From the NCBI GenBank assembly GCA_964564335.1, contig CAZMBV010000002.1, positions 1-40,537 of the forward strand: 40,537 nt of DNA, given 5' to 3'. Position numbers and translations under genes: made by a program. This DNA comes from an uncultured archaeon. Lineage in GTDB: Archaea > Asgardarchaeota > Thorarchaeia > Thorarchaeales > Thorarchaeaceae. Each line of letters begins with the position of its first letter. The first letter of the stretch is position 1. The notes under the pieces are model-generated. The model had not been told where the DNA came from. It saw only the letters and a program-made list of their open reading frames with translations, and did no database searches. Below, piece after piece: positions 2,084 through 35,417 of this stretch.

Positions 2084-2116
2084 GTATTCTTTCAAATATG
2101 TTTGGATTCATTTCAC

Positions 2117-2137
2117 TTTTTTTTGTTTTTTCATTTT
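2117..2137 (+). terminator. Oligo-T tract (T8-G-T6...TTTT) just after the hflX stop; candidate archaeal intrinsic terminator
   Basis: Sequence cacTTTTTTTTGTTTTTTcaTTTTg lies 34 nt after the hflX TGA. Archaeal RNA polymerase terminates at T-runs. The tract falls inside the 2080-2292 extension of the giant ORF, which I consider non-coding. Confidence 0.35.
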
Positions 2138-2292
2138 GCTTACATTCTGTGCCAACAATTATAACGACTAGTACTCTACAAAAAATGTTCCGCTGTTGGG
2201 AGAAGTCACTCAGGAGGGATGATATTCACGTTGGAAATTATCGTTACTTCCTGTTTTTCCAAGGCGATCTGGGTCAAGGAGGAGTGTCAGAT

Positions 2293-5200
2293 ATGCGTGG
2301 ACGAAATATTCGGAATCAAGTTATTTCTGTGCTTATAATTTGTAGTTTCATTGTTGGAATCATTACACCTGCGGTATCAGCTGGTCAAATTGCTGTGGAG
2401 TATGAGGAATCTAAAAAAGAACCGGCTGAGCGGTATCATCTTGATTCCATATACATTTTTTTTGATAAAAATGACGAAATAATGAAGACAATCGTTGATA
2501 TCGTTACGGAGATAGTATCATTCAAGCTGGAATCAATCGTCATGATTCCAGTAGACACATACTCTGATTTTAGTTATCAGTTATCAGATGAACCTTGGAT
2601 TGCAGTTTATGCATTCCAATCCAATCTAACACATGTTCAATTCCCAGACATATCAATAACTTGGCAACAGTTTTACAAATCGCTTGCACAACATCAGTCT
2701 ACGCACCACATTATAGGAATGGCTAACACACTCTCTATGGAAGAATACATCATCGATGATATTCCTGATATTATTGACAGTCAAGCTGAGCAAACAGATG
2801 CATTACTTCTTGCAGTACATGATATTTGGTCAATTACAGACGTTATTGAAAGTCGTGCAGATGAAGATGAGAAATACAAATCCGCATCTGAGGACTTACG
2901 AAGCATTGCCCTCACACTTTTTGCTGATAACTTCAACGAGATATTTTCACGCACATTGGAACCAGTTGATGTTGTTGGTCAAATTGATCAGGTTGCTCTT
3001 GAAGAACGGACACAGGAAATGTGGGCTGAACACGCACCCACAATAGAACCTGCGGTGTATAAAAAACTCGATAATGGGACTTTGGTCGAGATACCGAAAG
3101 ATCAAATTCCGGAAGACTTCTCTCCTGTTATCAAGCTTAGCTCTGCAATTACCCCTCCTGGAAGTGATTTCTCTCTTGGAAAGATACCCTTGTTTTCTGG
3201 GCTCAGAGGACCAATAGGTGAGATTGTTAATGTTCTCCTGAAGTTACTCTCCGATTCCGACAGTGTTGATATTTCAATCGACAGCGACACAATGGATTCA
3301 ATCCGTACTATTTTCGAGATTATTCAACCGTTCATCGGGATCGTATCCAACTATGACAGTTCCTCTCCAATGAAGTCCATAATACAGGCCTTGGCTAATG
3401 AGTTCCCCTTCATCGAAGAATATAAGGTCTACATAGAGGTTCTTTTGAAGTGCTTATTCAGTCTTAGAGGAAGCCCATCCGAGATTATTGGTACTGTAAC
3501 AGAAGCAGTCATATCACTCCTGCCAGAGCTCTTTCCTGGTGAAATAACTGATTTCGTAGTAGATCTACTGGGAGTCAATAACGGTCTTGCAGATGTGTTG
3601 ACTGATGTAGTCGATGGAGGAAAGGGTGTATTTGATTCCCTACTCGCATTCTTTACAAACAACGTATTGACTTCACTATTCAATAAGACTCTTGTTGCCA
3701 CATTTGGTCTAGCCCAATCAACTGCTGATGTTTTGTTACCTCGAATGAGTGCATTTTCACAATCAATTATTAATTTCATCAGTACACTTGACTTTGAGAC
3801 CTTCGTAAATGATGTAGCTGAAGAATTATTGACTGATTCTTTAGGTCTCATGACTGATGCAGACGGAGAAGAAGTCCTTGCTCGTATCATGTCTGTTGTT
3901 AAGTTGAGTCTGACAGTTCTCGATGCTGTAGACTCATTTACAATCGAGTCTGTGGTTTCGGTTGTTGCTCAACTCGTTGTTGAATTCTTTGGAGCTCCTG
4001 CTCTGCTTGACGATCCTGAAGATATTGCGAGAGGTATGATGGGCATAGTCAAGGACTATATGGAAGGTTCAGTGACAAATGTTGCAGGTTTCCGTGATGA
4101 ATTAGAATCTGTTGTGACTCCTTCCATCACAGGGTTTGCAAGTCCGTTAGGAGATTTGCTTATAGATGTAATAACAATGATTGCAGGCTTCTATAATGAT
4201 GGATTTAGTCCGTCTGCAGTCCCAGATATGTTTGAGGTTTTTGAGGGTCTTGTTGATGAGATGGGTTTCACACCTTCAGTCCACGATGATATCATAGGTG
4301 CGATTAATGGTGTCCTTAGACCTGTCCTTGGTATTATTGCAGAGGTATCCAATAGTGATTCTCTTCGAGAGATGGTCAGTAAAACACTTAGTGAATTTGA
4401 TACTGAAATTGGAAACATACCTGGTCTTGTTGTAGATGTAATTTCCTACCTTGACCTTGAGGGTACATTGGATGCTATAGTTGGTGCTTCAGATGTACTC
4501 GATTCTTTGGCGAAAATCTCTACAGGCATCATCAAGATTGCTGAAGCTGCTCAGGGTAAGTCATTCGAAGGAGTCATGCATGGCATTTTGATTTCTGTAG
4601 CTGCTATTACCGGCGTAATGCCTGCTTTTGATGATGTCCCTATTGATGCATTCTTGGAACTGCTTAAGGCATTCTTTCCTGAAGTATTTGGTATTGAGCG
4701 AGAAGACGCTCCGATGCCCTCTCAGGTCATTGCCAATGTGACTACAATTGTCGGTGGCTACCTTGGCCTTGAATTTGATACAGGAATGCTTAACGAGTTT
4801 CTCAAGTCTCTGATGGACACAAAGGACATTTTCACAAAAGGTGTTAGATGGCTTACAGGCATGCTCTTTGATTGGTTGACCGGTGAACTAACTCCCTTAT
4901 TCAAAGACCTGACTGATATGATTGAAGAAGCCCTTGGAAATTCCGGTGAGATTCTAGGATACCATAGCAAAATTCCAATTGGGGTGGGTGATTGGAACCT
5001 ATTCGACCTGACCATAGATCTTGGGCTCATCGCAGACTTTGAGATAGATCCGACTCCACTCTTCGATATCGTTAGAAGTGTAATCTTCGATGGCCGCGAG
5101 GTATTTTCACTCGATAGCCTAACGGATTTCTTTGGCGTCCTCTTCAAGTGTTTTTCAATCAGCCCTAGGTTCTACGCAGATATGGGTGTTGAGGAATTTG

Positions 5201-8200
5201 ACACCTCAAAGAATCCTATGCTCAAATTTCTGTTGGAGTCCTTTGGTCTAGAATTGACCTTCTCCGGTCATGCCCATTTTGTCCTTAACCTATTCACTTT
5301 CAGGGGTGGCGTTTTTGAATGGGACCAGTTCATGCGTGTATTCGAGTGGGGCTTCAATATCAAGATCGGCGTGTCACGGACGTTTACTTTCTTGGACTTT
5401 ATTACAGGCGGAGCTGCAGGTGCGCTCAATGCAATTGGTGAGTATATTGGCTTGGATGCTATCACAGTCACTGTGTTCTTTGCTGTAGAACTCGATATCG
5501 TAAAGCGTGCGGCAACAGCAATTGCTCCCGAGGTCTCAACACTTACAATCGCCATCGCCCTTGGAGCGACTGCGCATATTGGATTAGACCTTCTTATCTG
5601 CGAACTTGCCATAGATGGGACTATAGAGATTATATTGACGTTCTTCCAAGACCTGGCGAGTAGCAGTCCGATGCAGATCACATTGAATCTGATATTTACC
5701 ATATCCGTCACTGTCGACCTTTTACTGGTCTCAAAGGATTTTGATTTTGAGATACTGAATAAACTCTGGGACCTTAGTCCGCATAAAGGTGAAGATGAGT
5801 ACGCGAATTCAGGAATTGGATTCGATACGGACGGAGACGGCCTCGGAGACGAATACGAGGCTACGTTGCCCGGATATGACCTCAATAATCCCGATACCGA
5901 CGGGGACGGTGCAGGTGACAAACTCGAAGTCCAAACGATGTTCACTGACGGCACTAATCCAGATACTGATGGGGACGGATTATTAGATGGTGAAGAATGG
6001 GAATTGGGTACTAATCCTCACTTCGTGGACTCTGACTGGGATGATATCACAGACTTTGAAGAAGTCCGTGTCTATGGGACCAATCCCCTCTGTATGGATA
6101 CCGATGGGGATGGGCTAAATGATGACTATGAGATCTACACCAAATGGAATATTACCACAGTCACTCCAACAGTCACAGAGGTCATCATCGGGGGAGTAGC
6201 GTACAACGACCACACAGACCCGCTGAATCCTGATACCGATGGGGACTCTCTCCTTGATGGAGATGAGGGTCCGATGGGTGCTTACTACGGTCTCTCCTTG
6301 CTCTATAATGAAACTGCTTCTGATCCCGACCCGTTGATTTTCAATAATGGGTACACTCATCCTCTCGACGCTGACACGGATGATGACTCCTACTTGCAAT
6401 TGTACAATGGAGTGGTGGACAGTCAAGCGTTGTTATTCCTGAAAGATATGAACGATGGTGCAGAGGTCCATGGGCTGCTAGCAGTCTTCTATGACGATGA
6501 TGGTATTCCTGAGGAGAAACGTCTGTTCACTAATCCTTGCAATCCCGATTCTGATGGAGACACTGGCATTACAGACAGAACCCCACAGGCAAGTCTGTGG
6601 ATAAATAGCGATGGGTTCGAGCTTGCTCAAGACCCCCCAACTAATCCCTTGGATGCAGACTCTGACGGAGACGGGTTAATTGATGGCATTGAAGGTATCC
6701 TCAGTCCGACGAGCAGTCACACTAATCCCAATATGGCCGATACTGATGGAGACGGGCTCTTTGATATGCATGAGCTTCTCTTGGGCTGTGACCCTCGTTC
6801 AACTGATACAGATGGAGACCTCATAACTGACGGCGACGAGTTCTACATCTTCTTTACGAACCCCTTAATTGAAGATACAGATTTTGATGCGTTAAAAGAT
6901 GGTGAAGAGGTCTTCCTGTGGCATTCAAATCCCCTCATCGACGATTCTGATGGCGATGGAATTCGAGATGGAGATGAGGTCTTACTGTACGGTTCGGACC
7001 CCATGGACGAGGATGGAGACAATGATGGGCTGACTGACTTCCAAGAGATCATGATATACTATACCGACCCATTTTCGTTTGATACAGACCTTGATGGTCT
7101 TGGTGACGGCGCTGAGATATTTACTTACAATTGTGACCCGCTTTCCTGGGATACAGACGGCGACTCGATAACTGAACCAAATGAGTTTGGTGAGATGACT
7201 TGGCCGATGAGTGATTATGATGAGGTCATGATTCACCATACAAATGCCACCGCTACTGATTCAGATCTTGACGGGCTCTCTGATGCCATAGAGCTGTATG
7301 TAGGCGCTGGAGAAATTCCATGGATGGATCCAATTCAGCTTGACCCAATGAACGCCGATACAGACGGAGACAATCTTACCGATGGTTGCGAAATGATGTT
7401 GGTGAATTATACCGCTATTACGTATCCCTATATTGCTGTGAGTATAGTCTTCGTGCATAGCACATCGCCCGTTCTAAGTGATACAGATGGAGACCTATTG
7501 ACAGACTATCAAGAAATTGTTACCTTTAAGACTGATGCATCAAATGTCGATACCGATAATGATACCATCAGTGACTGGTGGGAAGTCTGGGTCTACAACA
7601 CGTCAGCTATCAATGCAGATACTGATGGAGACAATTTACCAGACATCAATGAGACATTGACAGAGGTATGGCCTTATGGTCCCTGGCCGCCTGCGGGTAG
7701 CCCTACTGAACCAGGCCAGTTCTCAATGGCAACTGAACATCCTGGAGCGGTATTAGCATCAGCTGAATATTTGACTTCTGCCACAGATCCTGACTCGGAT
7801 GATGATTGGTTGCCGGATGGAGCAGAAGTGCAATTCTACATGACGAATCCGATGGATGCAGATAGTGACCATGACGGTACAAACGACGGGTTGGAATTTG
7901 ATACAGATTTTGACGGTCTTCTGGACGCCTATGAGTTCAGCCTGGGACTGCAGTATGTTGTGGGTGGAGGGATTATGAATCCTGATTCCGACGGAGATGG
8001 GCTTTTGGACGGTGCTGAAGTGAACATATACCATACAGACCCACTTAACCGTGATTCAGACGGAGATGGCATCCCGGATGGATTCGAGGTAGCGACTGGC
8101 TCCGACCCGCTGTTTTGGACGTACTTTTCGGTGCTTGCTCCAGTAGGGACTTATGTCCCTACAGTGCCAATACAATTTGAGGCGCTTAACTATACTGCGT

Positions 8201-8982
8201 TTGATAGTATGTGGTATCGGTATGGAGATGGTTTATCGTGGAGTTCCAATGTATCACTGACATATAGTGCAGTAAGTGGTAGATGGGAGGATGCAAGCGT
8301 ATCTCTACCAATAGGCGTCTATCTCTTCGAGATATTTGGTGAGGATGTTAACGGCACGGAGCGTACATACAGCGGCTCATTTACTGTTTCAGAAGAAGGT
8401 AGTGCGGTTTCAATCGGATCAAGGATGGTGATCATGACTCCCGTCAATGGTGGGGTAACATATTCTTCCACCGCAGTGAGAGTGCAGAACCTTACATCAT
8501 TCGAGTCGATGTGGTATCGATACAAAACTTCTGGACCTTGGAGTGACAACATCACTCTGACCTATAGTAATGATTCACTTCACTGGTCTGATGTATCTGC
8601 TGAGTGGCCTCCAGGAGAATATGTCCTCCAGGTGTTCGGAGAGATTGCTGATGGTACAGAGTTCATGGCAGAAATAACATTCACGGTACCAGCACCATTT
8701 CCATGGCTAATTGTTATTGGCGTAGCAGCTGCGGCACTGTTTGGACTAACCCTTATCACCTACAGGTTCTGGTGGATGAAGCGGGGCACAAAATCGGAAA
8801 AGAGTCCTGATACACCTCCCGATCCAGGTACAACAGAAGAGAAACCTACGCCTAAGAGAAAAAGAAAGACTCCTGTTACGCAAGAAGAACCAACGCAGGT
8901 TAAGACGAAACCATCGACTAAGAAGAGTACGGGAACGTCTTCGAAAAAGAAAGCCACTACGGCTGAGGAGGGAGGCAAGTAA
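2293..8982 (+). CDS. Giant (~2230 aa) type-I membrane surface protein: signal peptide, ~1170-aa domain-less acidic region, ~26 thrombospondin type-3-like Ca-binding repeats, two tandem beta-sandwich-like domains, TM helix, Lys/Thr/Pro-rich tail
   Basis: The track ORF is 2080-8982. I prefer ATG 2293 because GGAGG lies 8-9 nt upstream and the N-terminus MRGRNIRNQVISVLIICSFIVGIITPAVSAG-Q is a classical signal peptide. Repeats have the form DTDGDGLxDxxE. The TM helix is PWLIVIGVAAAALFGLTLITYRFWW, followed by a basic tail. Confidence 0.85.
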   Translation: MRGRNIRNQVISVLIICSFIVGIITPAVSAGQIAVEYEESKKEPAERYHLDSIYIFFDKNDEIMKTIVDIVTEIVSFKLESIVMIPVDTYSDFSYQLSDEPWIAVYAFQSNLTHVQFPDISITWQQFYKSLAQHQSTHHIIGMANTLSMEEYIIDDIPDIIDSQAEQTDALLLAVHDIWSITDVIESRADEDEKYKSASEDLRSIALTLFADNFNEIFSRTLEPVDVVGQIDQVALEERTQEMWAEHAPTIEPAVYKKLDNGTLVEIPKDQIPEDFSPVIKLSSAITPPGSDFSLGKIPLFSGLRGPIGEIVNVLLKLLSDSDSVDISIDSDTMDSIRTIFEIIQPFIGIVSNYDSSSPMKSIIQALANEFPFIEEYKVYIEVLLKCLFSLRGSPSEIIGTVTEAVISLLPELFPGEITDFVVDLLGVNNGLADVLTDVVDGGKGVFDSLLAFFTNNVLTSLFNKTLVATFGLAQSTADVLLPRMSAFSQSIINFISTLDFETFVNDVAEELLTDSLGLMTDADGEEVLARIMSVVKLSLTVLDAVDSFTIESVVSVVAQLVVEFFGAPALLDDPEDIARGMMGIVKDYMEGSVTNVAGFRDELESVVTPSITGFASPLGDLLIDVITMIAGFYNDGFSPSAVPDMFEVFEGLVDEMGFTPSVHDDIIGAINGVLRPVLGIIAEVSNSDSLREMVSKTLSEFDTEIGNIPGLVVDVISYLDLEGTLDAIVGASDVLDSLAKISTGIIKIAEAAQGKSFEGVMHGILISVAAITGVMPAFDDVPIDAFLELLKAFFPEVFGIEREDAPMPSQVIANVTTIVGGYLGLEFDTGMLNEFLKSLMDTKDIFTKGVRWLTGMLFDWLTGELTPLFKDLTDMIEEALGNSGEILGYHSKIPIGVGDWNLFDLTIDLGLIADFEIDPTPLFDIVRSVIFDGREVFSLDSLTDFFGVLFKCFSISPRFYADMGVEEFDTSKNPMLKFLLESFGLELTFSGHAHFVLNLFTFRGGVFEWDQFMRVFEWGFNIKIGVSRTFTFLDFITGGAAGALNAIGEYIGLDAITVTVFFAVELDIVKRAATAIAPEVSTLTIAIALGATAHIGLDLLICELAIDGTIEIILTFFQDLASSSPMQITLNLIFTISVTVDLLLVSKDFDFEILNKLWDLSPHKGEDEYANSGIGFDTDGDGLGDEYEATLPGYDLNNPDTDGDGAGDKLEVQTMFTDGTNPDTDGDGLLDGEEWELGTNPHFVDSDWDDITDFEEVRVYGTNPLCMDTDGDGLNDDYEIYTKWNITTVTPTVTEVIIGGVAYNDHTDPLNPDTDGDSLLDGDEGPMGAYYGLSLLYNETASDPDPLIFNNGYTHPLDADTDDDSYLQLYNGVVDSQALLFLKDMNDGAEVHGLLAVFYDDDGIPEEKRLFTNPCNPDSDGDTGITDRTPQASLWINSDGFELAQDPPTNPLDADSDGDGLIDGIEGILSPTSSHTNPNMADTDGDGLFDMHELLLGCDPRSTDTDGDLITDGDEFYIFFTNPLIEDTDFDALKDGEEVFLWHSNPLIDDSDGDGIRDGDEVLLYGSDPMDEDGDNDGLTDFQEIMIYYTDPFSFDTDLDGLGDGAEIFTYNCDPLSWDTDGDSITEPNEFGEMTWPMSDYDEVMIHHTNATATDSDLDGLSDAIELYVGAGEIPWMDPIQLDPMNADTDGDNLTDGCEMMLVNYTAITYPYIAVSIVFVHSTSPVLSDTDGDLLTDYQEIVTFKTDASNVDTDNDTISDWWEVWVYNTSAINADTDGDNLPDINETLTEVWPYGPWPPAGSPTEPGQFSMATEHPGAVLASAEYLTSATDPDSDDDWLPDGAEVQFYMTNPMDADSDHDGTNDGLEFDTDFDGLLDAYEFSLGLQYVVGGGIMNPDSDGDGLLDGAEVNIYHTDPLNRDSDGDGIPDGFEVATGSDPLFWTYFSVLAPVGTYVPTVPIQFEALNYTAFDSMWYRYGDGLSWSSNVSLTYSAVSGRWEDASVSLPIGVYLFEIFGEDVNGTERTYSGSFTVSEEGSAVSIGSRMVIMTPVNGGVTYSSTAVRVQNLTSFESMWYRYKTSGPWSDNITLTYSNDSLHWSDVSAEWPPGEYVLQVFGEIADGTEFMAEITFTVPAPFPWLIVIGVAAAALFGLTLITYRFWWMKRGTKSEKSPDTPPDPGTTEEKPTPKRKRKTPVTQEEPTQVKTKPSTKKSTGTSSKKKATTAEEGGK
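5824..8112 (+). repeat. In-frame array of ~26 D-x-D-x-D-G-x-x-D-x-x-E (thrombospondin type 3 / calcium-binding) repeats inside the giant CDS
   Basis: Recurring DTDGDGLGD, DTDGDGAGD, DTDGDGLLD, DSDGDGIRD, DTDGDNLTD, DSDGDGIPD and similar units, each usually followed by xE and an N-P-x-x-x-D linker. Confidence 0.85.
8131..8690 (+). repeat. Tandem duplication of a ~90-aa membrane-proximal domain (protein-level repeat)
   Basis: Copy 1 reads ...FEALNYTAFDSMWYRYGDGLSWSSNVSLTYSAVSGRWEDASVSLPIGVYLFEIFGEDVNGTERTYSGSFTV. Copy 2 reads ...VRVQNLTSFESMWYRYKTSGPWSDNITLTYSNDSLHWSDVSAEWPPGEYVLQVFGEIADGTEFMAEITFTV. Confidence 0.8.
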
Positions 8983-26770: not shown

Positions 26771-27036
26771 GTTTGCACCCTCTTGGTGACATGTCTGAAC
26801 GTGACTGTTCAGCCCTCATACAGTAACCTCATTGATTGTGGGTTTTACTGGATGAAACCATCCTTCCAAATGGATACCAACGAGGGGGACAGTCTCCCGA
26901 AAGTAAACGAGATCATTCCGTCTTGCGACAACCGAATTATCATCTTTGTTCAATCAGAATACACTCAAATACTGGAAAACTCAAATAGCGCGATAGTATT
27001 CGATGAGAGAGGATACTAATACTCAGGTGGCAAAAG

Positions 27037-27603
27037 ATGGTCACTGCACTATTCAAAGTTGTACTCATGGGTGACGGAAGCGTCGGAAAGACCAGTCTTC
27101 GTCGAACCTACATGGGCGAAGGTTTCAGAGCTAATTACATGATCACCATCGGAGCGGACTTCGCCGTCAAGAAAATGCAACTTGAAGGTGGACATGATGT
27201 TTCGATACAGATCTGGGATCTCGCAGGTCAGGAGCACTTCAAGAGCGTCCGTTCAACCTTCTACAAAGGAGCTCAAGGTGCACTAGCAGTGTATTCCACA
27301 GTCGAGCGTGGTTCCTTCGACAATCTCATGAACTGGGTAGATGAATGCTGGACTAATGCTGGCAAGAAGATACCAATAGTTCTCATTGCTAACAAGATAG
27401 ACCTTAGAGACCAATTCAAGGATAATCCTGTTATGGCACAGACAATTGTCACAACTGAAGAGGGTCAAAAACTCGCAGCCGATATTGCTAGTCAAGGAGT
27501 AATAACTTCCTTCCTTGAAACAAGTGCAAAAACTGGTATAAATGTAGAAGCCGCTTTCTTGGAATTAGCAATCAAGATCCTTGAAGCTGGCGGTCTCGCC
27601 TAG
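27037..27603 (+). CDS. Rab/Ras-like small GTPase without a C-terminal prenylation Cys
   Basis: G1 is LMGDGSVGKTSL, switch I is TIGADF, G3 is WDLAGQE, G4 is NKIDL and G5 is ETSAKTGINVEAAF. FYKGAQGAL is Rab-like. AGGTGG lies upstream of the ATG. Confidence 0.85.
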   Translation: MVTALFKVVLMGDGSVGKTSLRRTYMGEGFRANYMITIGADFAVKKMQLEGGHDVSIQIWDLAGQEHFKSVRSTFYKGAQGALAVYSTVERGSFDNLMNWVDECWTNAGKKIPIVLIANKIDLRDQFKDNPVMAQTIVTTEEGQKLAADIASQGVITSFLETSAKTGINVEAAFLELAIKILEAGGLA

Positions 27604-27606
27604 GAT

Positions 27607-28833
27607 TCATTCGTCGTTTAAATTGACAATATCTAAATCTCTTAGAATAGTTCCAAAGAGATCACTTGCTGCAGAATGAAGTATCTCATTATTGTTGGAG
27701 TGAATATCCAACCGTAATTTTGAGATACTATCCCCTTTGTTTCCAACCACAGTTAGTGTGATTGCAAGTTGAGTTTCTGAATAATTGCTCTTTGCCATTC
27801 CTGCAATGACCCCCATGAATGTGTTTTCACGTTCCATATTCTCATTCTGAAAGATGTAGAGATTCTTGTTTTCCATAATAGTATGCAATGCTCGATAGAG
27901 ATTTCTTGCCTCAGCACTAACTGTATGTTCCCTATTCCATTGTTCCATATCTGACTTCATATGGATAAACTCGTCAGCACCCATTTTTAATGGACTAAAT
28001 TGACTATAGATAGATCTGATGAATACATTACCTGCTTTTGCCGCTAGATCCTCTCCACTATCATCAACAAGGCGCACAGATGTTATGATTTCTCCCTCAA
28101 TGCACTCCCCTTGTATATTGAATCCAAAAATCAAAGAACCTGCATTATCTGGTTGTATCTCCTCAATGAATTGTGTTAGCGAATCCATTGGACTGAGACA
28201 TTCATTTGGATATGCAAGAATAGAAACGCTCACTTCGAAAATTGGAGAGTCCCCCTCATTCTTGATAGTTATTCCGTATTCCAAACTATCGGGTGTTATT
28301 GTATAATCGTTTATAACAAGTACATCATCTGTTGTTCGAAGAGGGATTGCATCCGTTTCTAGAAGGATATCTGTGGGATTCTCTTTTGATTTTGGAATGT
28401 ATGCTCCCACAGGAGCCTCTTCACCATAAATCTGCAACCATCTAAGTGCAAAGCCGACGGTCTCTCTAACACTCTCTGTATTGTCTCCCATATATTTCTC
28501 CAATATAGGGATTGCATCAAGTCTTCGTGTGAATGCTAACATTCCTGCAGCAGCAGCTCGAACTTGAGGACTATCGTCATTAAGAGCAATATCAAGGCAC
28601 TCAAATCCATCTTTCCCCCATTCACCTAGTTTGCAGACTGCCAGAAGTTTGATATCCTCATCCCCAGTGAGAGCAGCATCCTTAGTAGCTTGAATACTTG
28701 TGATCTGCTCTAACATGACTGTAATTTCGTCATCAGACGACTTCAGAACTTGTTTTACAGCCTTCCGTAACCGATTAAGTGATTCCCCACCACCCATAGC
28801 TCGTGACAAGTTTCTATCTGTCTTTCTAGACAA
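27607..28833 (-). CDS. HEAT-repeat (PBS-lyase HEAT-like) protein with a beta-rich middle region and an alpha/beta C-terminal region of unknown function
   Basis: 408-aa ORF with a TTG start. HEAT units include NDDSPQVRAAAAGMLAFTRRLDAIPILEKYMGDNTESVRETVGFALRWL. The remainder has no motif I recognise. Confidence 0.6.
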   Translation of the reverse strand: MSRKTDRNLSRAMGGGESLNRLRKAVKQVLKSSDDEITVMLEQITSIQATKDAALTGDEDIKLLAVCKLGEWGKDGFECLDIALNDDSPQVRAAAAGMLAFTRRLDAIPILEKYMGDNTESVRETVGFALRWLQIYGEEAPVGAYIPKSKENPTDILLETDAIPLRTTDDVLVINDYTITPDSLEYGITIKNEGDSPIFEVSVSILAYPNECLSPMDSLTQFIEEIQPDNAGSLIFGFNIQGECIEGEIITSVRLVDDSGEDLAAKAGNVFIRSIYSQFSPLKMGADEFIHMKSDMEQWNREHTVSAEARNLYRALHTIMENKNLYIFQNENMERENTFMGVIAGMAKSNYSETQLAITLTVVGNKGDSISKLRLDIHSNNNEILHSAASDLFGTILRDLDIVNLNDE

Positions 28834-28971
28834 AGTCTACCCTCTTGAAAACCTGCAACCTCGAACCATTTAATCATTGTTCTTATTCTGCAGACATCGT
28901 ACCTATTCATGCTGTACTCGCAACACTTTTACGTATTATAAAGTTCGGCACCTTACGAACCAGCCATGTGA

Positions 28972-30105
28972 GTGAACCCTATGGAAACCCAAGAACAGAC
29001 TATCTTCTTGAAACCAACAATCCTCAAACCACAGGCAGAACATGGTGCAGATATCACGCGACGTTTTGCAATGAATCGCGTTGGGCGCATGTTTGCAGCT
29101 GCACTTCAAGATAGGAGCATTCGTCTTTATGCTGCTGAAGACGCAGAGGAAATGCAGCTTATGCAAGATGATTTTCTCAGCACATCTCTTGCATTTAGTC
29201 CGAGGGGAGATATAGTTGCCTCTGGAACTGTTGAACGTGTTGTGAAACTCTGGGATATTCGTACGGGCGAATGTGTCGGAACTCTTGAAGGTCATACATA
29301 TCCTGTTCTCTCATTAGCATTCTCTCCAGATGGTAGTAAGCTTGTATCCGGTAGTGGTGATACAACTCTGATCATTTGGGATATGGAAAATCAATCAAAG
29401 ATTCGCCAAATGAAGGGGCATGGGTTCTACGTTGTTGCTGTTGATTGGGATCCAAATGACAATAGAATTGTTTCTGGCTCAGTCGACGCAAACATTTGCG
29501 AGTGGGATTCAAATAATGGTGAGATTATTGCACGTCACTCTGAACATCGAACAGCAGTGAGGGAAGTGCGATTCAACCCTGACGGTTCAAAACTAATTTC
29601 TGGTTCCTCTGACCTGACCATGGTGCTATGGGACTCTACATTCAAACCTATGAAAGTCGATGGAACTCTTCAAGCTCACGAGAGCGAAGTTCGTGCTCTT
29701 GGCTTTAGTCATGATGGGAAATATCTTGCATCTGGGTCATCTGACAAGACAATATTACTTTGGGATATGGATACTCTTCAGGTTCAAGGCCAAGCCTCAA
29801 CAATGGGTGAAATCGATGGGATCGAATGGTATCCAAATCGACACGCGTTCATTTCATCTGATGGTACAGGGGCGATTCTTCGATGGGAAGTTGAAGATAT
29901 GGGTGCAATGTTGAAACCCTTTCAAGACTTACTTGCTGAGATAGAAACTGCAAATGATCCAAATCGACGTGATGAATTCATTCAAAAATTTGACGAGATT
30001 TGTGGACAATATGATGCAGCTACACTACAGACAAAGAATATGTTTTATGCTATCTGGCAATGCAAACGTGCGTTAGGACTACTCAAGGGCAGCATTAAAA
30101 AATAA
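28972..30105 (+). CDS. WD40 beta-propeller protein with a short C-terminal helical extension
   Basis: Repeated GH...S(L/V)AFSPDG..L(V/A)SGS.D.T(I/L)..WD units, for example GHTYPVLSLAFSPDGSKLVSGSGDTTLIIWD and AHESEVRALGFSHDGKYLASGSSDKTILLWD. The start is GTG 28972 or ATG 28981. Confidence 0.85.
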   Translation: MNPMETQEQTIFLKPTILKPQAEHGADITRRFAMNRVGRMFAAALQDRSIRLYAAEDAEEMQLMQDDFLSTSLAFSPRGDIVASGTVERVVKLWDIRTGECVGTLEGHTYPVLSLAFSPDGSKLVSGSGDTTLIIWDMENQSKIRQMKGHGFYVVAVDWDPNDNRIVSGSVDANICEWDSNNGEIIARHSEHRTAVREVRFNPDGSKLISGSSDLTMVLWDSTFKPMKVDGTLQAHESEVRALGFSHDGKYLASGSSDKTILLWDMDTLQVQGQASTMGEIDGIEWYPNRHAFISSDGTGAILRWEVEDMGAMLKPFQDLLAEIETANDPNRRDEFIQKFDEICGQYDAATLQTKNMFYAIWQCKRALGLLKGSIKK

Positions 30106-30109
30106 GATA

Positions 30110-30658
30110 TTAGAACATAGGTTCCTTCGGAGCCGATTTTGATTCCTTAATCATTTTCTTACAGAGATTGACATAGGCTTCTTCTACATTCTCTCCAGTT
30201 AGTGCACTCGATTCAACGTAGATGAATCCATTCTCTTTTGCATAGGCTTGTCCATCTTTTTTAGTAACTGCTCTACTTTCTACCAAATCTATTTTGTTAG
30301 CAACAACAACAAGAGGAATTTCTTTTCCAGTGTTTACGAAGGTTTCCTCCTTCCATCTATCAATATTGAGAAACGTTCTCCGTCTTGTTACATCATAGAG
30401 GAGGAGACCGCCTCTTGCTCCACGGTAGAAACCCTGACGCACAAACTCGAATCGCGGTTGTCCTGCAAGGTCCCAACATTGCAACGTGATCTGAGCATCG
30501 ATGTCAGGAATCTCTAGTCGCTTAACTGCAAAGTCTGCGCCTATGGTCCGTTTGTAATCAGAGTCAAAAGTGTTCTGAGTGAACCTAGTGGTCATCGCGG
30601 TCTTTCCAACTGCACCGTCTCCTAACATCACAATTTTGAAACGGAATTCCGCGCTCAT
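30110..30658 (-). CDS. Rab/Ras-like small GTPase without a C-terminal prenylation Cys
   Basis: G1 is MLGDGAVGKTAM, switch I is TIGADF, G3 is WDLAGQP, G4 is NKIDL and G5 is SSALTGENVEEAY. FYRGARGGL is Rab-like. Confidence 0.85.
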   Translation of the reverse strand: MSAEFRFKIVMLGDGAVGKTAMTTRFTQNTFDSDYKRTIGADFAVKRLEIPDIDAQITLQCWDLAGQPRFEFVRQGFYRGARGGLLLYDVTRRRTFLNIDRWKEETFVNTGKEIPLVVVANKIDLVESRAVTKKDGQAYAKENGFIYVESSALTGENVEEAYVNLCKKMIKESKSAPKEPMF

Positions 30659-30791
30659 TTGAATAAGCTCCTAATCATTTGAAAGGGTGCAAGCTCATTT
30701 AAATCTCTACTGTGAATGAAGACAGTCTCACATGATTTAATAGGGAAACGCGCAAATTGACAATCAGTCCCTAGTTTGATGGTGCATTTTA
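30659..30791. promoter_or_regulatory. Shared divergent promoter region of GTPase 2 and the Roadblock gene, with two TATA-like boxes
   Basis: TTTAAAT (30698-30704) lies about 40 nt from the GTPase ATG on the minus strand. TTTAATA (30736-30742) lies about 50 nt before the Roadblock ATG. Both are A/T-rich boxes of archaeal TATA type. No experimental support. Confidence 0.3.
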
Positions 30792-31175
30792 ATGGAACGA
30801 CCTGACTATCGCGAACTCCCAAAGATCTTAGAACGAATGAACAAAGAGGGTGGATACTCCGCTTCAGTTCTTGCTAGAGGCCAAGGCCTTCTTGTTGCCT
30901 CCGCAACATCCCCTACGACAAATCAAGATGTTGTGGCTGCGATGTGTGGTATAATTGCTGATGTGGCAGAGCGAGTTAGGAAGGAGCTTGCACTTGGAGA
31001 TGTTCGTGACATCAGTCTTAGATGTGCTATGGGCAAAGCTGTATTCAAGAGAGTTGGTGCACGCGGAGACGATGTGCTCATTATCGGTGCTATTATGCCT
31101 AAGAACGTGCGTTATCATTCACGCGCAATTGGTAAAGCAACTACAGGCATTCGAAAACTCATGGGATACAAATAG
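30792..31175 (+). CDS. Roadblock/LC7 (MglB-like) domain protein
   Basis: 127-aa ORF with the Roadblock pattern: GGYSASVLARGQGLLVASATSP...DVVAAMCGIIADVAERVRKELALGDVRDISLRCAMGKAVFKRVG...DVLIIGAIM. Confidence 0.75.
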   Translation: MERPDYRELPKILERMNKEGGYSASVLARGQGLLVASATSPTTNQDVVAAMCGIIADVAERVRKELALGDVRDISLRCAMGKAVFKRVGARGDDVLIIGAIMPKNVRYHSRAIGKATTGIRKLMGYK

Positions 31176-31215
31176 CATAATCCGCGTCTTACACATCCTC
31201 AAAACATTCAAGTGA

Positions 31216-31264: not shown

Positions 31265-31591
31265 TTGAACACTGAGCAGGATGAAACTGTATCAGAGGAA
31301 GACGATGATAGGATAGAAGTCGTCTTATTCAAATCTGATACATGCGCTTTTTGTCCAAGGGCTGAGGAAGTGATTCGAGAAACGATTGAAGACTTTGGTC
31401 CCAACACCTTCAAACTAAACATCATCAATGTGAGTGAGAATCCAGATTTAGCAGAGAAGTATGGTATCTTTGCACTACCTACTGTGATGATTTCTGGGGT
31501 ATCAATCACTGGAATCCCTGAACCTGATATGTTGATGAAGATGATACTTGGTGCTAAAGTAATATCAATGAAAAAGGATGAGTCCAAATGA
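31265..31591 (+). CDS. Thioredoxin-fold / glutaredoxin-like small protein (CxxC = CAFC)
   Basis: TTG start. Sequence is VVLFKSDTCAFCPRAEEVIRE...NPDLAEKYGIFALPTVMISG. ATGA overlap with the downstream KaiC-like gene. Confidence 0.7.
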   Translation: MNTEQDETVSEEDDDRIEVVLFKSDTCAFCPRAEEVIRETIEDFGPNTFKLNIINVSENPDLAEKYGIFALPTVMISGVSITGIPEPDMLMKMILGAKVISMKKDESK

Positions 31592-32334
31592 GCGACTATG
31601 AAATTGAAAGAGTAAAAACAGGTATTACTGGTCTTGATGAGCTGATAGAGGGTGGTTTCCCACGCGGGGACACCATACTGATTGCTGGTAAGGCAGGAAC
31701 AGGCAAGAGTATTCTTGCAACACAGTTCATCTACAAGGGTGCCACTGACTACGATGAACCTGGTGTGTTTGTCACATTGGAAGAACCACCTCACCTGATT
31801 AAACGAAACATGCTTAGGTTTGGTATGGATTTGGAGGCGCTCATCAAACAAGGCAAGATTTCCATTGTTGACCTTTCTCCATCCAAAGAAATAACCCCGG
31901 TAACAATTGGTGAATATCCAAGTTTCGATCTTTCGGGACTGCAAGCCATTATCATGAACCACATCAAGAAAATAGGTGCCAAGCGGGTTGTTTTGGATAC
32001 TCTATCAATCATGGCATACAAATTCAGAAGTCGTGATATACTTCGTGAAGAATTCTTTAAACTCGCTGCCATGATAACAAGAACTGGATGTACACTCATT
32101 ATCACAAGTGAGATTCCTGCTCAAGATCATGGTTTGGGTGTTTTTGATATCGAAGCGTTTTTGGCTTCAGGTGTCATTGTGCTCTACAATGAGAAAATTT
32201 CCAACACATCACGTTCTCGTTCAATAGAAGTACTCAAATTGAGGGGTTCAAAACACAGTTCAAGAATTCACTCCATGAGGATTACAGACGAAGGTATAAG
32301 AGTGTGGCCTGGTGAAATAAGTCCAGGACATTGA
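31588..32334 (+). CDS. KaiC-like / RecA-superfamily ATPase (single domain)
   Basis: TGITGLDELIEGGFPRGDTILIAGKAGTGKSILATQFIYKG contains the Walker A motif. Walker B is RVVLDTLS. VLKLRGSKHS is typical of archaeal KaiC homologs. Confidence 0.8.
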   Translation: MSDYEIERVKTGITGLDELIEGGFPRGDTILIAGKAGTGKSILATQFIYKGATDYDEPGVFVTLEEPPHLIKRNMLRFGMDLEALIKQGKISIVDLSPSKEITPVTIGEYPSFDLSGLQAIIMNHIKKIGAKRVVLDTLSIMAYKFRSRDILREEFFKLAAMITRTGCTLIITSEIPAQDHGLGVFDIEAFLASGVIVLYNEKISNTSRSRSIEVLKLRGSKHSSRIHSMRITDEGIRVWPGEISPGH

Positions 32335-32344
32335 TAACTAGGAT

Positions 32345-33058
32345 GTGAACAAGACGAACAGTTCAGGTGGAACCGCCCCAACTCCTGCAAGGGCAAGTCC
32401 TATGATCAGCGAATTGGTCAAATTCGGCCAGCTGACACAGGTTTCCTACATGTTAGTAGGTCCACTTGGTTCAGGTAAGACTACTTATGCTGAGGCTTTT
32501 CTTGCTGAAGGTATAGCTCAGGGATTTCCAGCTGTTTTTGTAACAACAGATGTTTCTCCTAGAGTAATTCGAAATGATATGAGTCGACACGGGTGGACTA
32601 CTGAAATTCAAGAAGCATCCGGTCAGTTTGTCTTTATTGATGGATATTCTGAGCGCATGGGTGCACCAAAAACAGGATCCGCTCGTTCTTTAGCTAAAGT
32701 TGATGATATCAGTGAATTGGGAATAGTCCTATCAGAAGTTTTAGAGGATCTCGTTGTAGCTCGAATTGTAATTGATAGTCTCTCAACACTAATTCTTCAC
32801 TCTAACGAAGCGACCATGCCACGAGCTGTACAACGTCTTAGTGGGAGGGTCACGCAGAGTTCCCACAGTATCATGTATGTTCTAGAAGAAGGAGTTCATG
32901 ATGAGAAGACATATGCAACATTCTCCTATCTAGCAGATGCAGTTCTACGATTTCGCATTAATGATAGTGGAAATCTCCCTAAACATGAAGTTCGAATGGA
33001 AAGGATGCGTGGAACAGAAACATCTCGCGAATGGCATGATTTTGTGATTGAGCGATAG
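32345..33058 (+). CDS. Second, more divergent KaiC/RecA-superfamily ATPase
   Basis: Walker A is MLVGPLGSGKTTYAEAFLAEG and Walker B is RIVIDSLS. MERMRGTE corresponds to the KaiC-like LK.RG motif. The start is GTG 32345 or an internal ATG (MISELVKF). Confidence 0.65.
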   Translation: MNKTNSSGGTAPTPARASPMISELVKFGQLTQVSYMLVGPLGSGKTTYAEAFLAEGIAQGFPAVFVTTDVSPRVIRNDMSRHGWTTEIQEASGQFVFIDGYSERMGAPKTGSARSLAKVDDISELGIVLSEVLEDLVVARIVIDSLSTLILHSNEATMPRAVQRLSGRVTQSSHSIMYVLEEGVHDEKTYATFSYLADAVLRFRINDSGNLPKHEVRMERMRGTETSREWHDFVIER

Positions 33059-33119: not shown

Positions 33120-35417
33120 GTGGAGTCTATACTTCAAGCAATACTGAGAGATATCTTGATTGCACGTCTCTCGCTTGATGATGGATTATCTAAAATTCAA
33201 GGAATCTCCTTTCGGAACCCCGAAGAAGCTAATGTGTTATTTGATATTGCTCGAGCAATTGAGGAGATAATCCTTCGTCGCCCTGGACTTGCAAATGCAA
33301 AGCTGACCGAGTTAGCTGTAAGAATGTCATTCAACGAGAATAGGGTACTTCCAGAAATGTTAATCCTTCTTGATACACGATATACGAATAGTTACAGAAG
33401 AGCTGAATGTGAACTTCTACCTGATCTCGAAGCACTTCCGCGTCTGATTGATATTCTTGGTGAATTGTCTCAAGCAATTAATTCAACGATTCGTTTGAAT
33501 CTCCGTCCTGTTCTTCCTTTCTTGAGTGATGAAGTGTTAATGGTACTAAATGCAATCTATGATCGTCGGCATGATGCCACTATTTCATTGGCGCTTCACG
33601 AGGTTCATTATCTTGCATGGATACTAGTTGAAGCTGGATTCTTTGAAGGTTCTGAATTACTTCTGAATAGATTGATTGAGATAACAAATGAAATTGGTGA
33701 TGACGAGCTCACGTTTGAAGTCACCTTTGATTATACCTGTGTTCTAACAGAATTGAAAATGTTTAATGAGTCCAGGAATATTCTCAATGATTTGGAGAAG
33801 TACGCACGACGAAGTAAAGATTCTCTCAAGCTTGCAGAAGTCACACTTCAACAGGGAGTGAATGAAACCCGTGATGATACTGTTGATTTTAATGTGGCTC
33901 GAAAGCTTGGGGATAAATCTTCAGAATTTTATGATATTGCTCTAAAAGCTGGTTTAGTCAATCGTGATGAAGTGGGTCTTGCGCATTTAGTGATTGGTTC
34001 AAATATTCTTGTGAATGGCTGGAGAGAAGGAGTTTCTAATGCTGTTGAACGATTAGAACTTGGCTTAAAACTCTATGATAGTATTGAGAACAAGACCCCC
34101 CACCAAATGATTCATGTTTTCCGAACATTAGCTGGGCTTGGCTTTGCTCATGGATTAATGAGCGATCACGAAAATATGAGCAAGGCAATCGAGTACCTCT
34201 CCCATGCTAGAGATATCCTGGAGCAGTATAAGGATTCTATCTCCAATTACGAAATTGAGTTATCACGAGTCGAGAATGCTATTGGTTGGTTATGCCTTTC
34301 TACAGAATCCGATGAGTTCTGGGAATTGGGTATTCAAGCTTTCAAACGTACTGTAAAAATTAGGGAAAAATTACTGACTAGTGGGCAAATCTCTGATATA
34401 GAAATTCTTGGGACACGAATGGGTCTTGCATTGTCAAAGATGCGTTCTGCAGAACGTACTGATACTGATGATTCTCAAGAACCAATTCGGGATATTATCG
34501 GACAATATGTACCTCTATTTCCGACTGACTCGCGAGCATACGAAGAGATAGCAATCTCAACCTTTGACCTTGTTTGGCTTCTTGCGCGCCACGGTGGACA
34601 TTTACCTGCACGACTACGTAGGCTCTTGGATGATATTGATAGAATGCTGGAGGATACAGAAACAGATTCGATATTCATACAAGGGGTGTCTCTAGTTTTT
34701 CCATATTTAGAAAATTCTTGGAATACACTTCTTGAACGTTCAAAGATAATGAGTACTAGTTCGAGCCATCTTGCAGATGTTGCTAAACTTATTGCCGCAT
34801 TTGCTGTTTCAAAGATTAATCTCGAAGTACTGAATGTAGAACTTAGCGCTAGAGTCAAACCTGCTGTTGATGATGAAGTGGTCAGGGTTGATGCCTTACT
34901 TGCACAGTATTGGTTGGGTCAGACTTACCTTATTCAAACTATCCGAGCCTTTTACGATAACAAGGACTATTCCGATTTGGCTTCTGGTCTATATGCAGCA
35001 GCAATAGCATTTAACGAAGTACTTGACATTGAATCTGATTTTGGAGAATCAGTTGAATTCATCAAAGCTACATCAGCGTCAATGTTTCAGATGTTACGAA
35101 AATTCTCATTAACCTTGGAGAATCAATATGCAGCGTACATAGATCGATCCAAATTCTCTGGAATATTAACCAATACTGATGATGCTCAATACACTTTCAT
35201 TCTTGCAGAAGACTGGCTAGGCCTCGTTAAAATTGCAAATGCGTACCTACAGATGGTTGAACAATCTGAGATGGTTGAAGCTCAACCCTATCTCAACGCT
35301 GTATTCTCCAATATCACTCGAGCACTACGGATGATGGATGCAGTATCTCTAGTTGACAGACGAGTTTTAGCACTTCTTGGAGCAGAAATGAATCGACGAT
35401 ATTATCTGAGAATGTGA
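33120..35417 (+). CDS. Hypothetical 765-aa, apparently all-alpha (TPR-like/helical repeat) protein
   Basis: Long ORF with a GTG start and AAGGAG upstream. The composition is Leu/Ala/Glu/Arg-rich and amphipathic throughout. I see no catalytic or TM motif. Confidence 0.55.
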   Translation: MESILQAILRDILIARLSLDDGLSKIQGISFRNPEEANVLFDIARAIEEIILRRPGLANAKLTELAVRMSFNENRVLPEMLILLDTRYTNSYRRAECELLPDLEALPRLIDILGELSQAINSTIRLNLRPVLPFLSDEVLMVLNAIYDRRHDATISLALHEVHYLAWILVEAGFFEGSELLLNRLIEITNEIGDDELTFEVTFDYTCVLTELKMFNESRNILNDLEKYARRSKDSLKLAEVTLQQGVNETRDDTVDFNVARKLGDKSSEFYDIALKAGLVNRDEVGLAHLVIGSNILVNGWREGVSNAVERLELGLKLYDSIENKTPHQMIHVFRTLAGLGFAHGLMSDHENMSKAIEYLSHARDILEQYKDSISNYEIELSRVENAIGWLCLSTESDEFWELGIQAFKRTVKIREKLLTSGQISDIEILGTRMGLALSKMRSAERTDTDDSQEPIRDIIGQYVPLFPTDSRAYEEIAISTFDLVWLLARHGGHLPARLRRLLDDIDRMLEDTETDSIFIQGVSLVFPYLENSWNTLLERSKIMSTSSSHLADVAKLIAAFAVSKINLEVLNVELSARVKPAVDDEVVRVDALLAQYWLGQTYLIQTIRAFYDNKDYSDLASGLYAAAIAFNEVLDIESDFGESVEFIKATSASMFQMLRKFSLTLENQYAAYIDRSKFSGILTNTDDAQYTFILAEDWLGLVKIANAYLQMVEQSEMVEAQPYLNAVFSNITRALRMMDAVSLVDRRVLALLGAEMNRRYYLRM

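Follow-up and report, generated by a model that had tools for sequence, protein, structure and literature searches.

Two Rab-like GTPase genes (G1 and G2), a HEAT-type gene, a WD40 propeller gene and a Roadblock/LC7 gene lie within 4.1 kb of contig CAZMBV010000002.1 (assembly GCA_964564335.1), which originated from an uncultured archaeon of the Thorarchaeaceae and whose positions 1 to 40,537, the whole stretch analysed, are hereafter called the window. On sequence and gene order, G2 is the ortholog of a Thorarchaeota Rab that has already been crystallised (Thor-Rab), and G2 with the Roadblock gene is the most plausible functional pair of the neighbourhood. This pair is ranked as the firmest because the two genes are adjacent in every gene layout found and because G2 has an arginine resembling that of the bacterial GTPase MglA. 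The locus as a whole is interpreted, tentatively and with confidence just short of even, as a Thorarchaeia-specific neighbourhood of five independently transcribed genes, conserved across the class, that serves small-GTPase signalling. Its constant core consists of G1, the WD40 gene, G2 and the Roadblock gene, with the HEAT-appendage protein as a lineage-variable accessory.

A preliminary description of this DNA had reported five genes in the strand pattern + - + - +, and the list of open reading frames (ORFs) reproduced this arrangement exactly, including stop-to-stop gaps of 3 nt and 4 nt in the two convergent pairs and both divergent spacers (Table 1). Its family assignments were all confirmed with Pfam profiles (Ras, WD40, Robl_LC7 and HEAT_2), and every one of the GTPase sequence motifs numbered G1 to G5 was located in both GTPases. 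The source lineage fits the content of the window, as homologues of its lineage-specific proteins are nearly all annotated as Thorarchaeota where a name is given. No published description of this locus was found in the literature searched.

G2 and its Roadblock neighbour

Both GTPases matched the Pfam Ras profile PF00071 far above its gathering score of 21.6, G2 at 3.7e-50 (170.1 bits) and G1 at 2.5e-46 (157.7 bits), and the two are paralogs with 41% identity. The G2 motifs are GDGAVGKT (residues 13-20), R37-T38, DLAGQ (63-67), NKID (121-124) and SAL (151-153). The 'Thorarchaeota Rab' chain of Protein Data Bank (PDB) entry 7EZB matches G2 residues 1-176 at E 1e-89, and entries 7EZD and 7EZE hold the same matched chain. 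Thor-Rab (KXH73347.1) was taken from contig LRSL01000056.1 of Candidatus Thorarchaeota SMTZ1-45 (Tran et al. 2024, PMC10933270). A tblastn search of that contig gave 78% identity to G2, and the contig (locus L020/L044/L139) carries a gene order identical to that of the window. The assignment of G2 as the Thor-Rab ortholog is based on the 7EZB match together with this shared gene order. After Thor-Rab, the best PDB sequence matches of G2 were Rab2, Rab14 and Rab11, and those of G1, which matched Thor-Rab at 3.4e-38, were Rab8A, Rab1 and Ypt7 (E 1e-32 to 1e-39 for both GTPases), so that the Rab-like nature earlier ascribed to both proteins was borne out by matches led by Thor-Rab and followed by eukaryotic Rabs.

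The core of Thor-Rab was reported to be Rab-like, with RabF similarity and a basal GTPase activity similar to that of Rab11B; it has no prenylation motif, and neither REP nor RabGGTase homologs were found by BLAST in the same study (Tran et al. 2024, PMC10933270). The cysteine positions of the window proteins agree with the earlier observation that neither GTPase ends in a Cys box: G2 ends in ...SAPKEPMF and has cysteines solely at positions 61 and 166, and G1 ends in ...ILEAGGLA with a single cysteine at position 104. The C-terminal Cys motif for geranylgeranylation by which eukaryotic Rabs are recognised is thus absent from both. A structure-based alignment placed Arg37 of Thor-Rab at the position of the intrinsic arginine finger Arg53 of MglA, and this residue is unusual in that the other Rab paralogs of SMTZ1-45 are without it (PMC10933270). 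Arg37 is kept in G2, directly before Thr38; the switch I of G1 reads Ile36-Thr37 and has no intrinsic arginine. By analogy, Arg37 in switch I of G2 is a candidate for a catalytic role as an MglA-like arginine finger. G2 therefore shares with Thor-Rab the Rab-like core, the switch-I arginine and the absence of a C-terminal cysteine; the difference is one of context, as the Thor-Rab study (Tran et al. 2024) left the gene neighbourhood unanalysed and assigned no regulator or effector.

The Roadblock protein matched the Pfam profile Robl_LC7 at 9.1e-9 (35.4 bits, cut-off 23). An alignment of its family (alignment A2) shows the invariant motifs RPDY (residues 3-6) and VRYHxRxxGK (106-115). The search for this protein returned 54 loci, nearly all of them named as Thorarchaeota, and the rest came from archaeal or 'Promethearchaeota' metagenome-assembled genomes (MAGs) with the same gene order. 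The solved Asgard and bacterial Roadblock chains match it weakly (E 1.6e-4). The Roadblock protein crystallised by Tran et al. (2024, PMC10933270) is KXH72322.1, which appears to be a different gene from the neighbour of Thor-Rab and G2, since its accession number lies about 1,000 from that of Thor-Rab and the solved chains resemble the window protein so weakly. Thor-RB was also described as lacking a basic patch (Tran et al., PMC10933270), unlike the basic Roadblock protein of the window. As a separate observation, the Roadblock and HEAT-type proteins carry opposite charges, the former basic (22 K+R vs 13 D+E) and the latter strongly acidic (66 D+E vs 38 K+R).

The proposed G2-Roadblock pair takes its mechanistic template from the MglA-MglB system, in which a Roadblock dimer is the GTPase-activating protein (GAP) and positions the switch-I arginine of MglA. 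In both cases a small GTPase with a switch-I arginine is encoded beside a Roadblock/LC7 protein. The two systems differ in that the sequence and structure of G2 are those of a Rab-like protein and its DxxGQ motif is canonical; in that G2 and the Roadblock gene are divergent with separate TATA-like elements and do not form an mglBA operon; and in that the window locus adds a second GTPase, a WD40 protein and a protein with an appendage domain. A combination closer in lineage is an Asgard operon of a LAMTOR1-like Roadblock protein, a Rab-like GTPase and a DENN protein (Liu et al. 2021). This operon, together with the eukaryotic Ragulator/FLCN and C9orf72-SMCR8-WDR41 complexes, resembles the window locus in joining a regulator of Roadblock or longin fold to a Rab-like GTPase, and C9orf72-SMCR8-WDR41 likewise includes a WD40 subunit. 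The window genes differ from the DENN-containing operon in composition and in not being co-directional, and no DENN family match was found with Pfam at E <= 0.01 in ten proteins around the locus.

Conservation of the gene neighbourhood

Gene order was compared across about 100 distinct Thorarchaeota contig groups. All five genes are arranged as in the window in 34 groups (layout A), some of which have a HEAT-type protein just 29-40% identical to that of the window. The HEAT-type gene is absent from 24 groups (layout B), where G1 is followed co-directionally by the WD40 gene. The locus is split in layout C: in 12 groups the G1 side lies near DUF8156 (and PolB where this is visible) with unrelated genes after it, and the Roadblock gene, G2 and the HEAT-type gene stand with a block of KaiC genes, the WD40 gene being absent there, in 5-6 groups. 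About 850 kb lie between the two halves in CP070658.1, a complete genome. In layout C, G2 and the HEAT-type gene run in the same direction, with about 90 bp between them. The WD40 gene adjoins G2 in the informative groups of layouts A and B, and G2 adjoins the Roadblock gene in 55 contig groups that cover all three layouts. The genomes without the HEAT-type gene keep G1, WD40, G2 and Roadblock together. Orthologs of the HEAT-type, Roadblock and WD40 proteins were not found outside Thorarchaeia in alignment-based scans. A search for the locus with a single HEAT-type sequence had found nothing; the alignment-based scans found its relatives.

The spacers were compared for promoter-like elements. 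Four TATA-like elements are conserved across the class, one each for the HEAT-type gene, the WD40 gene, G2 and the Roadblock gene (Table 1). Those of G2 and Roadblock stand back-to-back in one spacer, which is 128-140 bp long in most close relatives, and that of the WD40 gene is kept in the genomes that lack the HEAT-type gene. No operator motif shared by the divergent spacers was seen: a common palindrome was lacking, and the separate TATA-like elements were all that was found.

Table 1 Features of the five-gene locus and of its surroundings in the window
Feature	Position	Strand	Extent	Basis or remark
G1, Rab-like GTPase gene	27037-27603	+	188 aa	ORF list
HEAT-type gene, 'mini-adaptin-like' protein	27607-28833	-	408 aa	ORF list
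Appendage-like domain of HEAT-type protein	27634-28338	-	aa 166-281 and 282-400	beta-sandwich and alpha/beta platform
Predicted flexible hinge of HEAT-type protein	28339-28425	-	aa 137-165	
HEAT-repeat region of HEAT-type protein	28426-28695	-	aa 47-136	~3 repeats, common prokaryotic HEAT_2/alphaRep type
HEAT-type/WD40 divergent spacer	28834-28971		138 bp	
Promoter-like element CATTTAATCATT, for HEAT-type gene	28867-28878			intergenic comparison, 16 loci
Promoter-like element AACACTTTTACG, for WD40 gene	28922-28933			intergenic comparison, 16 loci
WD40 propeller gene	28972-30105	+	377 aa	ORF list
Helical tail of WD40 protein	29887-30102		~aa 306-377, ~70 aa	
G2, Rab-like GTPase gene	30110-30658	-	182 aa	ORF list
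G2/Roadblock divergent spacer	30659-30791		133 bp	
TATA-like element CATTTAAATCTCTACTGT, for G2	30696-30713			MAFFT, 25 spacers
TATA-like element ATGATTTAATAGGGAA, for Roadblock gene	30732-30747			MAFFT, 25 spacers
Roadblock/LC7 gene	30792-31175	+	127 aa	ORF list
Conserved motif TCAAAACATTCAAGTGA	31199-31215			between Roadblock and thioredoxin-like genes
CxxC thioredoxin-like protein gene	31265-31591	+		weak KaiB match
KaiC-like ATPase 1 (KaiC1) gene	31588-32334	+		single-domain; overlaps thioredoxin-like gene
KaiC-like ATPase 2 (KaiC2) gene	32345-33058	+		single-domain
TPR-type alpha-solenoid gene	33120-35417	+	765 aa	Thorarchaeota-specific
DUF8156-PolB/G1 junction	26771-27036			insertion hotspot
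HflX-type GTPase gene	782-2083			left window end
Adjacent ORFs, probable surface proteins	2080-8982 and 8984-16876		2300 and 2630 aa	TSP3_bac and FG-GAP repeats

Several observations weigh against a functional neighbourhood. Judged from the alternating strands and the separate conserved promoter-like elements, the five genes are no operon. Synteny is equally strong for about 8 kb on each side, over unrelated housekeeping genes: MtrH, DUF2114, an F420 ligase, a Ni-insertion protein, PolB and DUF8156 on one side, and the thioredoxin-like gene, two KaiC genes, the TPR protein gene and EF2 on the other. The adjacency of the five genes is therefore no specific evidence for a unit, and inherited gene order alone could explain it. 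The set is also broken in places, with the HEAT-type gene absent in 24 groups, G1 separated in 12, and 1.2-1.7 kb of unrelated genes (pyruvate kinase, membrane proteins) between G2 and Roadblock in 4 of the 55 groups. One contig group (L013/L156, SOKL01000065.1) is without G2 and has the WD40 gene directly before the Roadblock gene, at a distance of 187 bp, which reflects either genuine loss of the Thor-Rab ortholog or an error of assembly. The other four genes showed no relaxed constraint after loss of the HEAT-type gene in a relative-rate test on 21 HEAT-less pairs, which is a weak test. G2 is Rab-like rather than MglA-like and has the canonical DxxGQ motif. Finally, small GTPases, which make up as much as about 2% of genes, and Roadblock/longin proteins are both numerous in Asgard genomes, and some chance adjacency is therefore to be expected.

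These observations bear on a somewhat unlikely alternative, namely that a segment of about 20 kb has been stable since the ancestor of Thorarchaeia without functional coupling and that the partners of the GTPases are encoded elsewhere. Conservation of the whole block from MtrH to EF2 along with the five genes, alternation of strands with separate promoter-like elements, the rearrangements, losses and insertions inside the five-gene set, and the unrelaxed rates once the HEAT-type gene is lost are all consistent with it, as is the report that the GTPases of MK-D1 are generally unlinked to Roadblock/longin genes (Tran et al., PMC10933270). It accounts less readily for the composition of the locus, in which four of the five families, namely the small GTPase counted twice, Roadblock and a scaffold of propeller or adaptor type, are known to cooperate in other systems. 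Nor does it account readily for the behaviour of the split layout, where the Roadblock gene, G2 and the HEAT-type gene stayed contiguous, the last two now running in the same direction, or for the fact that the paralog with the MglA-like arginine, G2, is the one beside Roadblock. The preliminary description had inferred that the five genes form one unit and had proposed a search for the same neighbourhood in related genomes. Adjacency is indeed present across Thorarchaeia, with G2 and Roadblock together in all layouts, and to this extent the proposal holds; it is only partly supported because the flanks are equally syntenic, the promoters are separate, the HEAT-type gene can be lost, and splits and insertions occur.

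Downstream of the Roadblock gene lies a block of four genes for which the thioredoxin-like, KaiC and TPR assignments came from Pfam and NCBIfam, and which always accompanies G2 and Roadblock. The predicted structure of the TPR protein is all-helical (mean predicted local distance difference test score, pLDDT, 86.9), and Foldseek gave generic TPR scaffolds only. Among the matches listed for KaiC1, only Thorarchaeota-named or closely similar sequences occurred. Nearly all of the Thorarchaeota loci examined retain the motif TCAAAACATTCAAGTGA, with CTAGGAG about 40 nt further on; the motif separates the Roadblock gene from the downstream thioredoxin-KaiC operon and may be the promoter or operator of the thioredoxin-KaiC-KaiC-TPR operon. 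A defence-system reading of nine proteins was tried with PADLOC and rejected, the result being a generic WD40-repeat match and one marginal KaiC match.

The constancy of this block raises a second alternative, considered clearly unlikely, in which Roadblock, and perhaps G2, is the input or output switch of the thioredoxin-KaiC-KaiC-TPR module and the WD40 protein, the HEAT-appendage protein and G1 are bystanders. The order G2-Roadblock-thioredoxin-KaiC1-KaiC2-TPR is kept in all three layouts, the split clade included, and the Roadblock gene is on the same strand as the thioredoxin-KaiC operon. KaiC1 and KaiC2 are also very conserved (90% and 86%), and the TPR protein is specific to Thorarchaeota, as are the Roadblock and HEAT-type families. 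However, a spacer of 90-170 bp with TCAAAACATTCAAGTGA and a ribosome-binding-like site divides Roadblock from the thioredoxin-like gene, which by contrast overlaps KaiC1, and a limited literature search found no link between KaiC, Roadblock and GTPases.

Rates of change differ widely among the genes of the locus. Across the 29 loci that carry all genes, the median identity to the window gene is 95% for G1, 90% for KaiC1, 86% for KaiC2, 78% for G2, 73% for PolB, 68% for WD40, 65% for Roadblock and 48% for the HEAT-type gene, which is the fastest-evolving of the locus. G1 is the slowest-evolving gene and is under very strong constraint, with a relative rate of 0.41-0.49 of the reference genes; such constraint is typical of highly connected GTPases. 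Conservation above PolB, EF2 and both KaiC-like ATPases is unusual within a large paralogous GTPase family. The G1 motifs are GDGSVGKT (12-19), T37, DLAGQ (61-65), NKID (119-122) and SAK (163-165), with a 13-residue insert between the fourth and fifth motifs. Outside Thorarchaeia, G1-like genes with 45-50% identity and different neighbours occur in Heimdallarchaeum and in Bathyarchaeia-labelled MAGs, and, judged by eye, the N- or C-terminal regions of some appear longin- or roadblock-like. The orthology of these genes is uncertain, and no WD40 or HEAT-type genes were found beside them.

Two further features of the window concern its surroundings. The junction of DUF8156-PolB with G1 is an insertion hotspot that contains 0.3-4.7 kb of unrelated genes in some loci (L047, L070, L002). 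At the left window end lies an HflX-type GTPase with GTP-bdg_N, GTP-bdg_M and MMR_HSR1 domains, which has no relation to the module.

The WD40 protein and the predicted solenoid-hinge-ear protein

The WD40 protein matched the Pfam WD40 profile at 2.8e-49 in five stretches and consists of canonical WD repeats, probably in seven blades. Its PDB matches were generic WD40 proteins only. The propeller is followed by a conserved helical tail at the C-terminus, which has no match in solved WD40 structures and ends in a nearly invariant FYxxWQCKxALGLLKG motif (alignment A3). Orthologs were found in Thorarchaeota only, the next-best matches being generic bacterial WD40 proteins with 27-40% identity; a scan for an ortholog elsewhere in the split-layout genomes was swamped by these generic proteins. 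Protocoatomer proteins combine a propeller and a long solenoid in one polypeptide, and here the two are encoded by separate genes.

The second scaffold had been described simply as a HEAT protein. This is accurate for a region of about 90 residues, and residues 166-400 form another domain. The Pfam profile HEAT_2 matched at 1.9e-7 over residues 57-130 and was found in 33 of the 33 family members; a profile search against PDB sequences matched solely alphaRep/HEAT proteins, at positions 57-133, and no Adaptin_N match was found among the 33 family members. An AlphaFold2 model was built from the alignment of these 33 sequences (mean pLDDT 79.8, about 90 over residues 170-400). Residues 1-38 are predicted to be disordered and are nevertheless conserved in sequence. 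Residues 142-162 of the hinge have pLDDT below 50 and no predicted secondary structure, and the hinge holds a conserved acidic-hydrophobic motif, ENPxEILLETDxIPLRTTDD (alignment A1). A reading of ILLETD as a clathrin box was considered and set aside as a poor fit, with a polar residue at position 4, and the stretch is retained as a conserved linear motif. The platform of the C-terminal domain, at residues 286-400 in the model, carries an invariant W299-NREH motif. The family has 138 members, and all source names but one are Thorarchaeota.

When the model was searched against the PDB with Foldseek, the top 14 matches were the appendages of COPI (coat protein complex I) gamma- and beta-COP and of alpha- and beta2-adaptin from AP2 (adaptor protein complex 2), with E 6e-12 to 3.8e-7, probability 1.0 and mostly about 240-256 aligned columns; the target-normalised template modelling scores of hits 2-14 were 0.39-0.62. 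The Pfam profile Coatomer_b_Cpla stayed below threshold over the appendage region (17.6 bits vs 32.7), and this sub-threshold match recurs in 10 of the 33 family members (best E 1.1e-3). The modelled protein thus resembles an adaptin large subunit in miniature, with solenoid, hinge and ear. The earlier analogy to the building plan of coats, an alpha-solenoid plus a beta-propeller, understates the likeness, as the solenoid gene itself carries the adaptin/COPI-type appendage-like domain.

The large subunits of AP and COPI complexes have the same order of alpha-solenoid, unstructured hinge and two-lobed appendage (an Ig-like sandwich and a platform). In the window protein the two-lobed appendage is present at the level of predicted structure and the hinge as a prediction. 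The differences are considerable: about 90 residues of HEAT_2 repeats stand in place of an Adaptin_N trunk of about 500-600 residues, appendage sequence similarity is below Pfam thresholds, the neighbouring GTPases are Rab-like and not Arf-like, no mu or sigma partner is encoded nearby (Pfam found no Clat_adaptor_s or Adap_comp_sub match among the neighbouring proteins), and no membrane link is known. In eukaryotes, a small GTPase recruits the AP and COPI adaptors, and beta-propeller proteins act together with them.

Appendage domains of this kind are known from archaea in other settings. Archaeal adaptin/COPI C-terminal domains have been described in fusion with Vps28, Vps23, longin or GOLD domains, or as standalone proteins (Liu et al. 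2021; Makarova et al. 2024), and the standalone forms occur in ESCRT contexts (Liu et al. 2021; Eme et al. 2023; Makarova et al. 2024). Asgard appendage domains were not detected downstream of an adaptin-type solenoid, and the domains were described as 'not fused to each other' (Eme et al. 2023). The archaeal 'adaptin appendage' proteins share the IG-like and TBP/platform lobes and often have a zinc ribbon or a transmembrane link, as do relatives of the window domain; the window protein differs in joining a HEAT solenoid to the ear and in being encoded between two Rab-like GTPase genes. The components of the locus are variants of known Asgard eukaryote-like parts, and the modelled fusion of HEAT solenoid and ear would be new relative to Eme et al. 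(2023).

An exhaustive search with a hidden Markov model of residues 160-408 returned 294 clusters at E <= 1e-3, and all six of the sampled clusters bearing a source organism name were Asgard (Thorarchaeota, Lokiarchaeota or Helarchaeota). Long membrane proteins with a single pass are numerous among these relatives; their extracellular beta-helix, LVIVD, SBBP, FG-GAP or Ig domains precede a transmembrane helix and a basic stretch, and the appendage-like domain comes next, on the cytoplasmic side, often with a CxxC...CxxC zinc ribbon behind it. Examples of this membrane family are P0140, P0141, P0146, P0147, P0157 and P0164 (query window 27610-28356); in P0128 and P0130, which are soluble, the appendage-like domain is duplicated in tandem. 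The giant probable surface proteins of the window itself (Table 1) were tested for the domain, and it is absent from them.

The predicted architecture suggests a third alternative, which is regarded as improbable: a minimal GTPase-regulated adaptor or coat-like machine, assembled on a membrane by the Rab-like GTPases, with the HEAT-hinge-appendage protein as the adaptin large subunit, Roadblock as a longin-fold small subunit and the WD40 protein as an outer or cargo layer. Such a machine would match the adaptin-like architecture predicted for the HEAT-type protein and the presence of four component types within 4.1 kb, and the Asgard single-pass surface proteins with a homologous cytoplasmic appendage-like domain could be its clients. 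It is difficult to reconcile with a trunk of about 90 residues that is not Adaptin_N, with two GTPases lacking lipid anchors, with the lack of mu- or sigma-type subunits encoded nearby, and with a HEAT-type gene that is dispensable in many species and a WD40 gene missing from the locus of the split clade. The corresponding proposal that an archaeal GTPase-switched adaptor module, an analogue or relative of AP/COPI, sorts cargo or receptors at a prokaryotic membrane is very doubtful, and that it would engage the Asgard single-pass surface proteins through their cytoplasmic appendage-like tails is a long shot.

Proposed mechanism and significance

Under the preferred interpretation as a neighbourhood for small-GTPase signalling, G2 would cycle between GDP and GTP under the control of a Roadblock dimer. 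This dimer may act as MglB does on MglA, positioning Arg37 and Gln67 of G2 for hydrolysis and so serving as a GAP, or it may instead stabilise one nucleotide state of G2. GTP-bound G2, and possibly the near-invariant G1, would bind the HEAT-appendage protein, the WD40 protein or both as effector scaffolds. Further partners might then be brought in through the appendage-like domain and through the conserved linear motifs of the hinge and N-terminus, in the manner of adaptin ears and hinges.

The eukaryote-like small GTPases of Asgard archaea are numerous, and to our knowledge almost none has an assigned regulator or effector. Pairing these GTPases with regulators from genome layout was described as difficult (Tran et al. 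2024, PMC10933270). The locus analysed here puts the one Thorarchaeota Rab for which both a crystal structure and an activity measurement exist beside a Roadblock protein, a propeller and a protein with a predicted ear, and the main gains are the assignment of G2 as Thor-Rab with a Roadblock neighbour, the extreme conservation of G1 and the recognition of a predicted fused solenoid-hinge-ear protein. An archaeal Rab that has already been crystallised thereby gains partner candidates that can be tested, and as all of the proteins are small and should express readily, the question of the partners of Asgard Rab-like GTPases is reduced to a few direct experiments. If the proposed pairing is true, G2 and Roadblock would be the first case of an Asgard Rab-like GTPase matched with its regulator, and if the ear protein is a true effector, the locus would bear on how adaptor-type machinery arose before eukaryotes.

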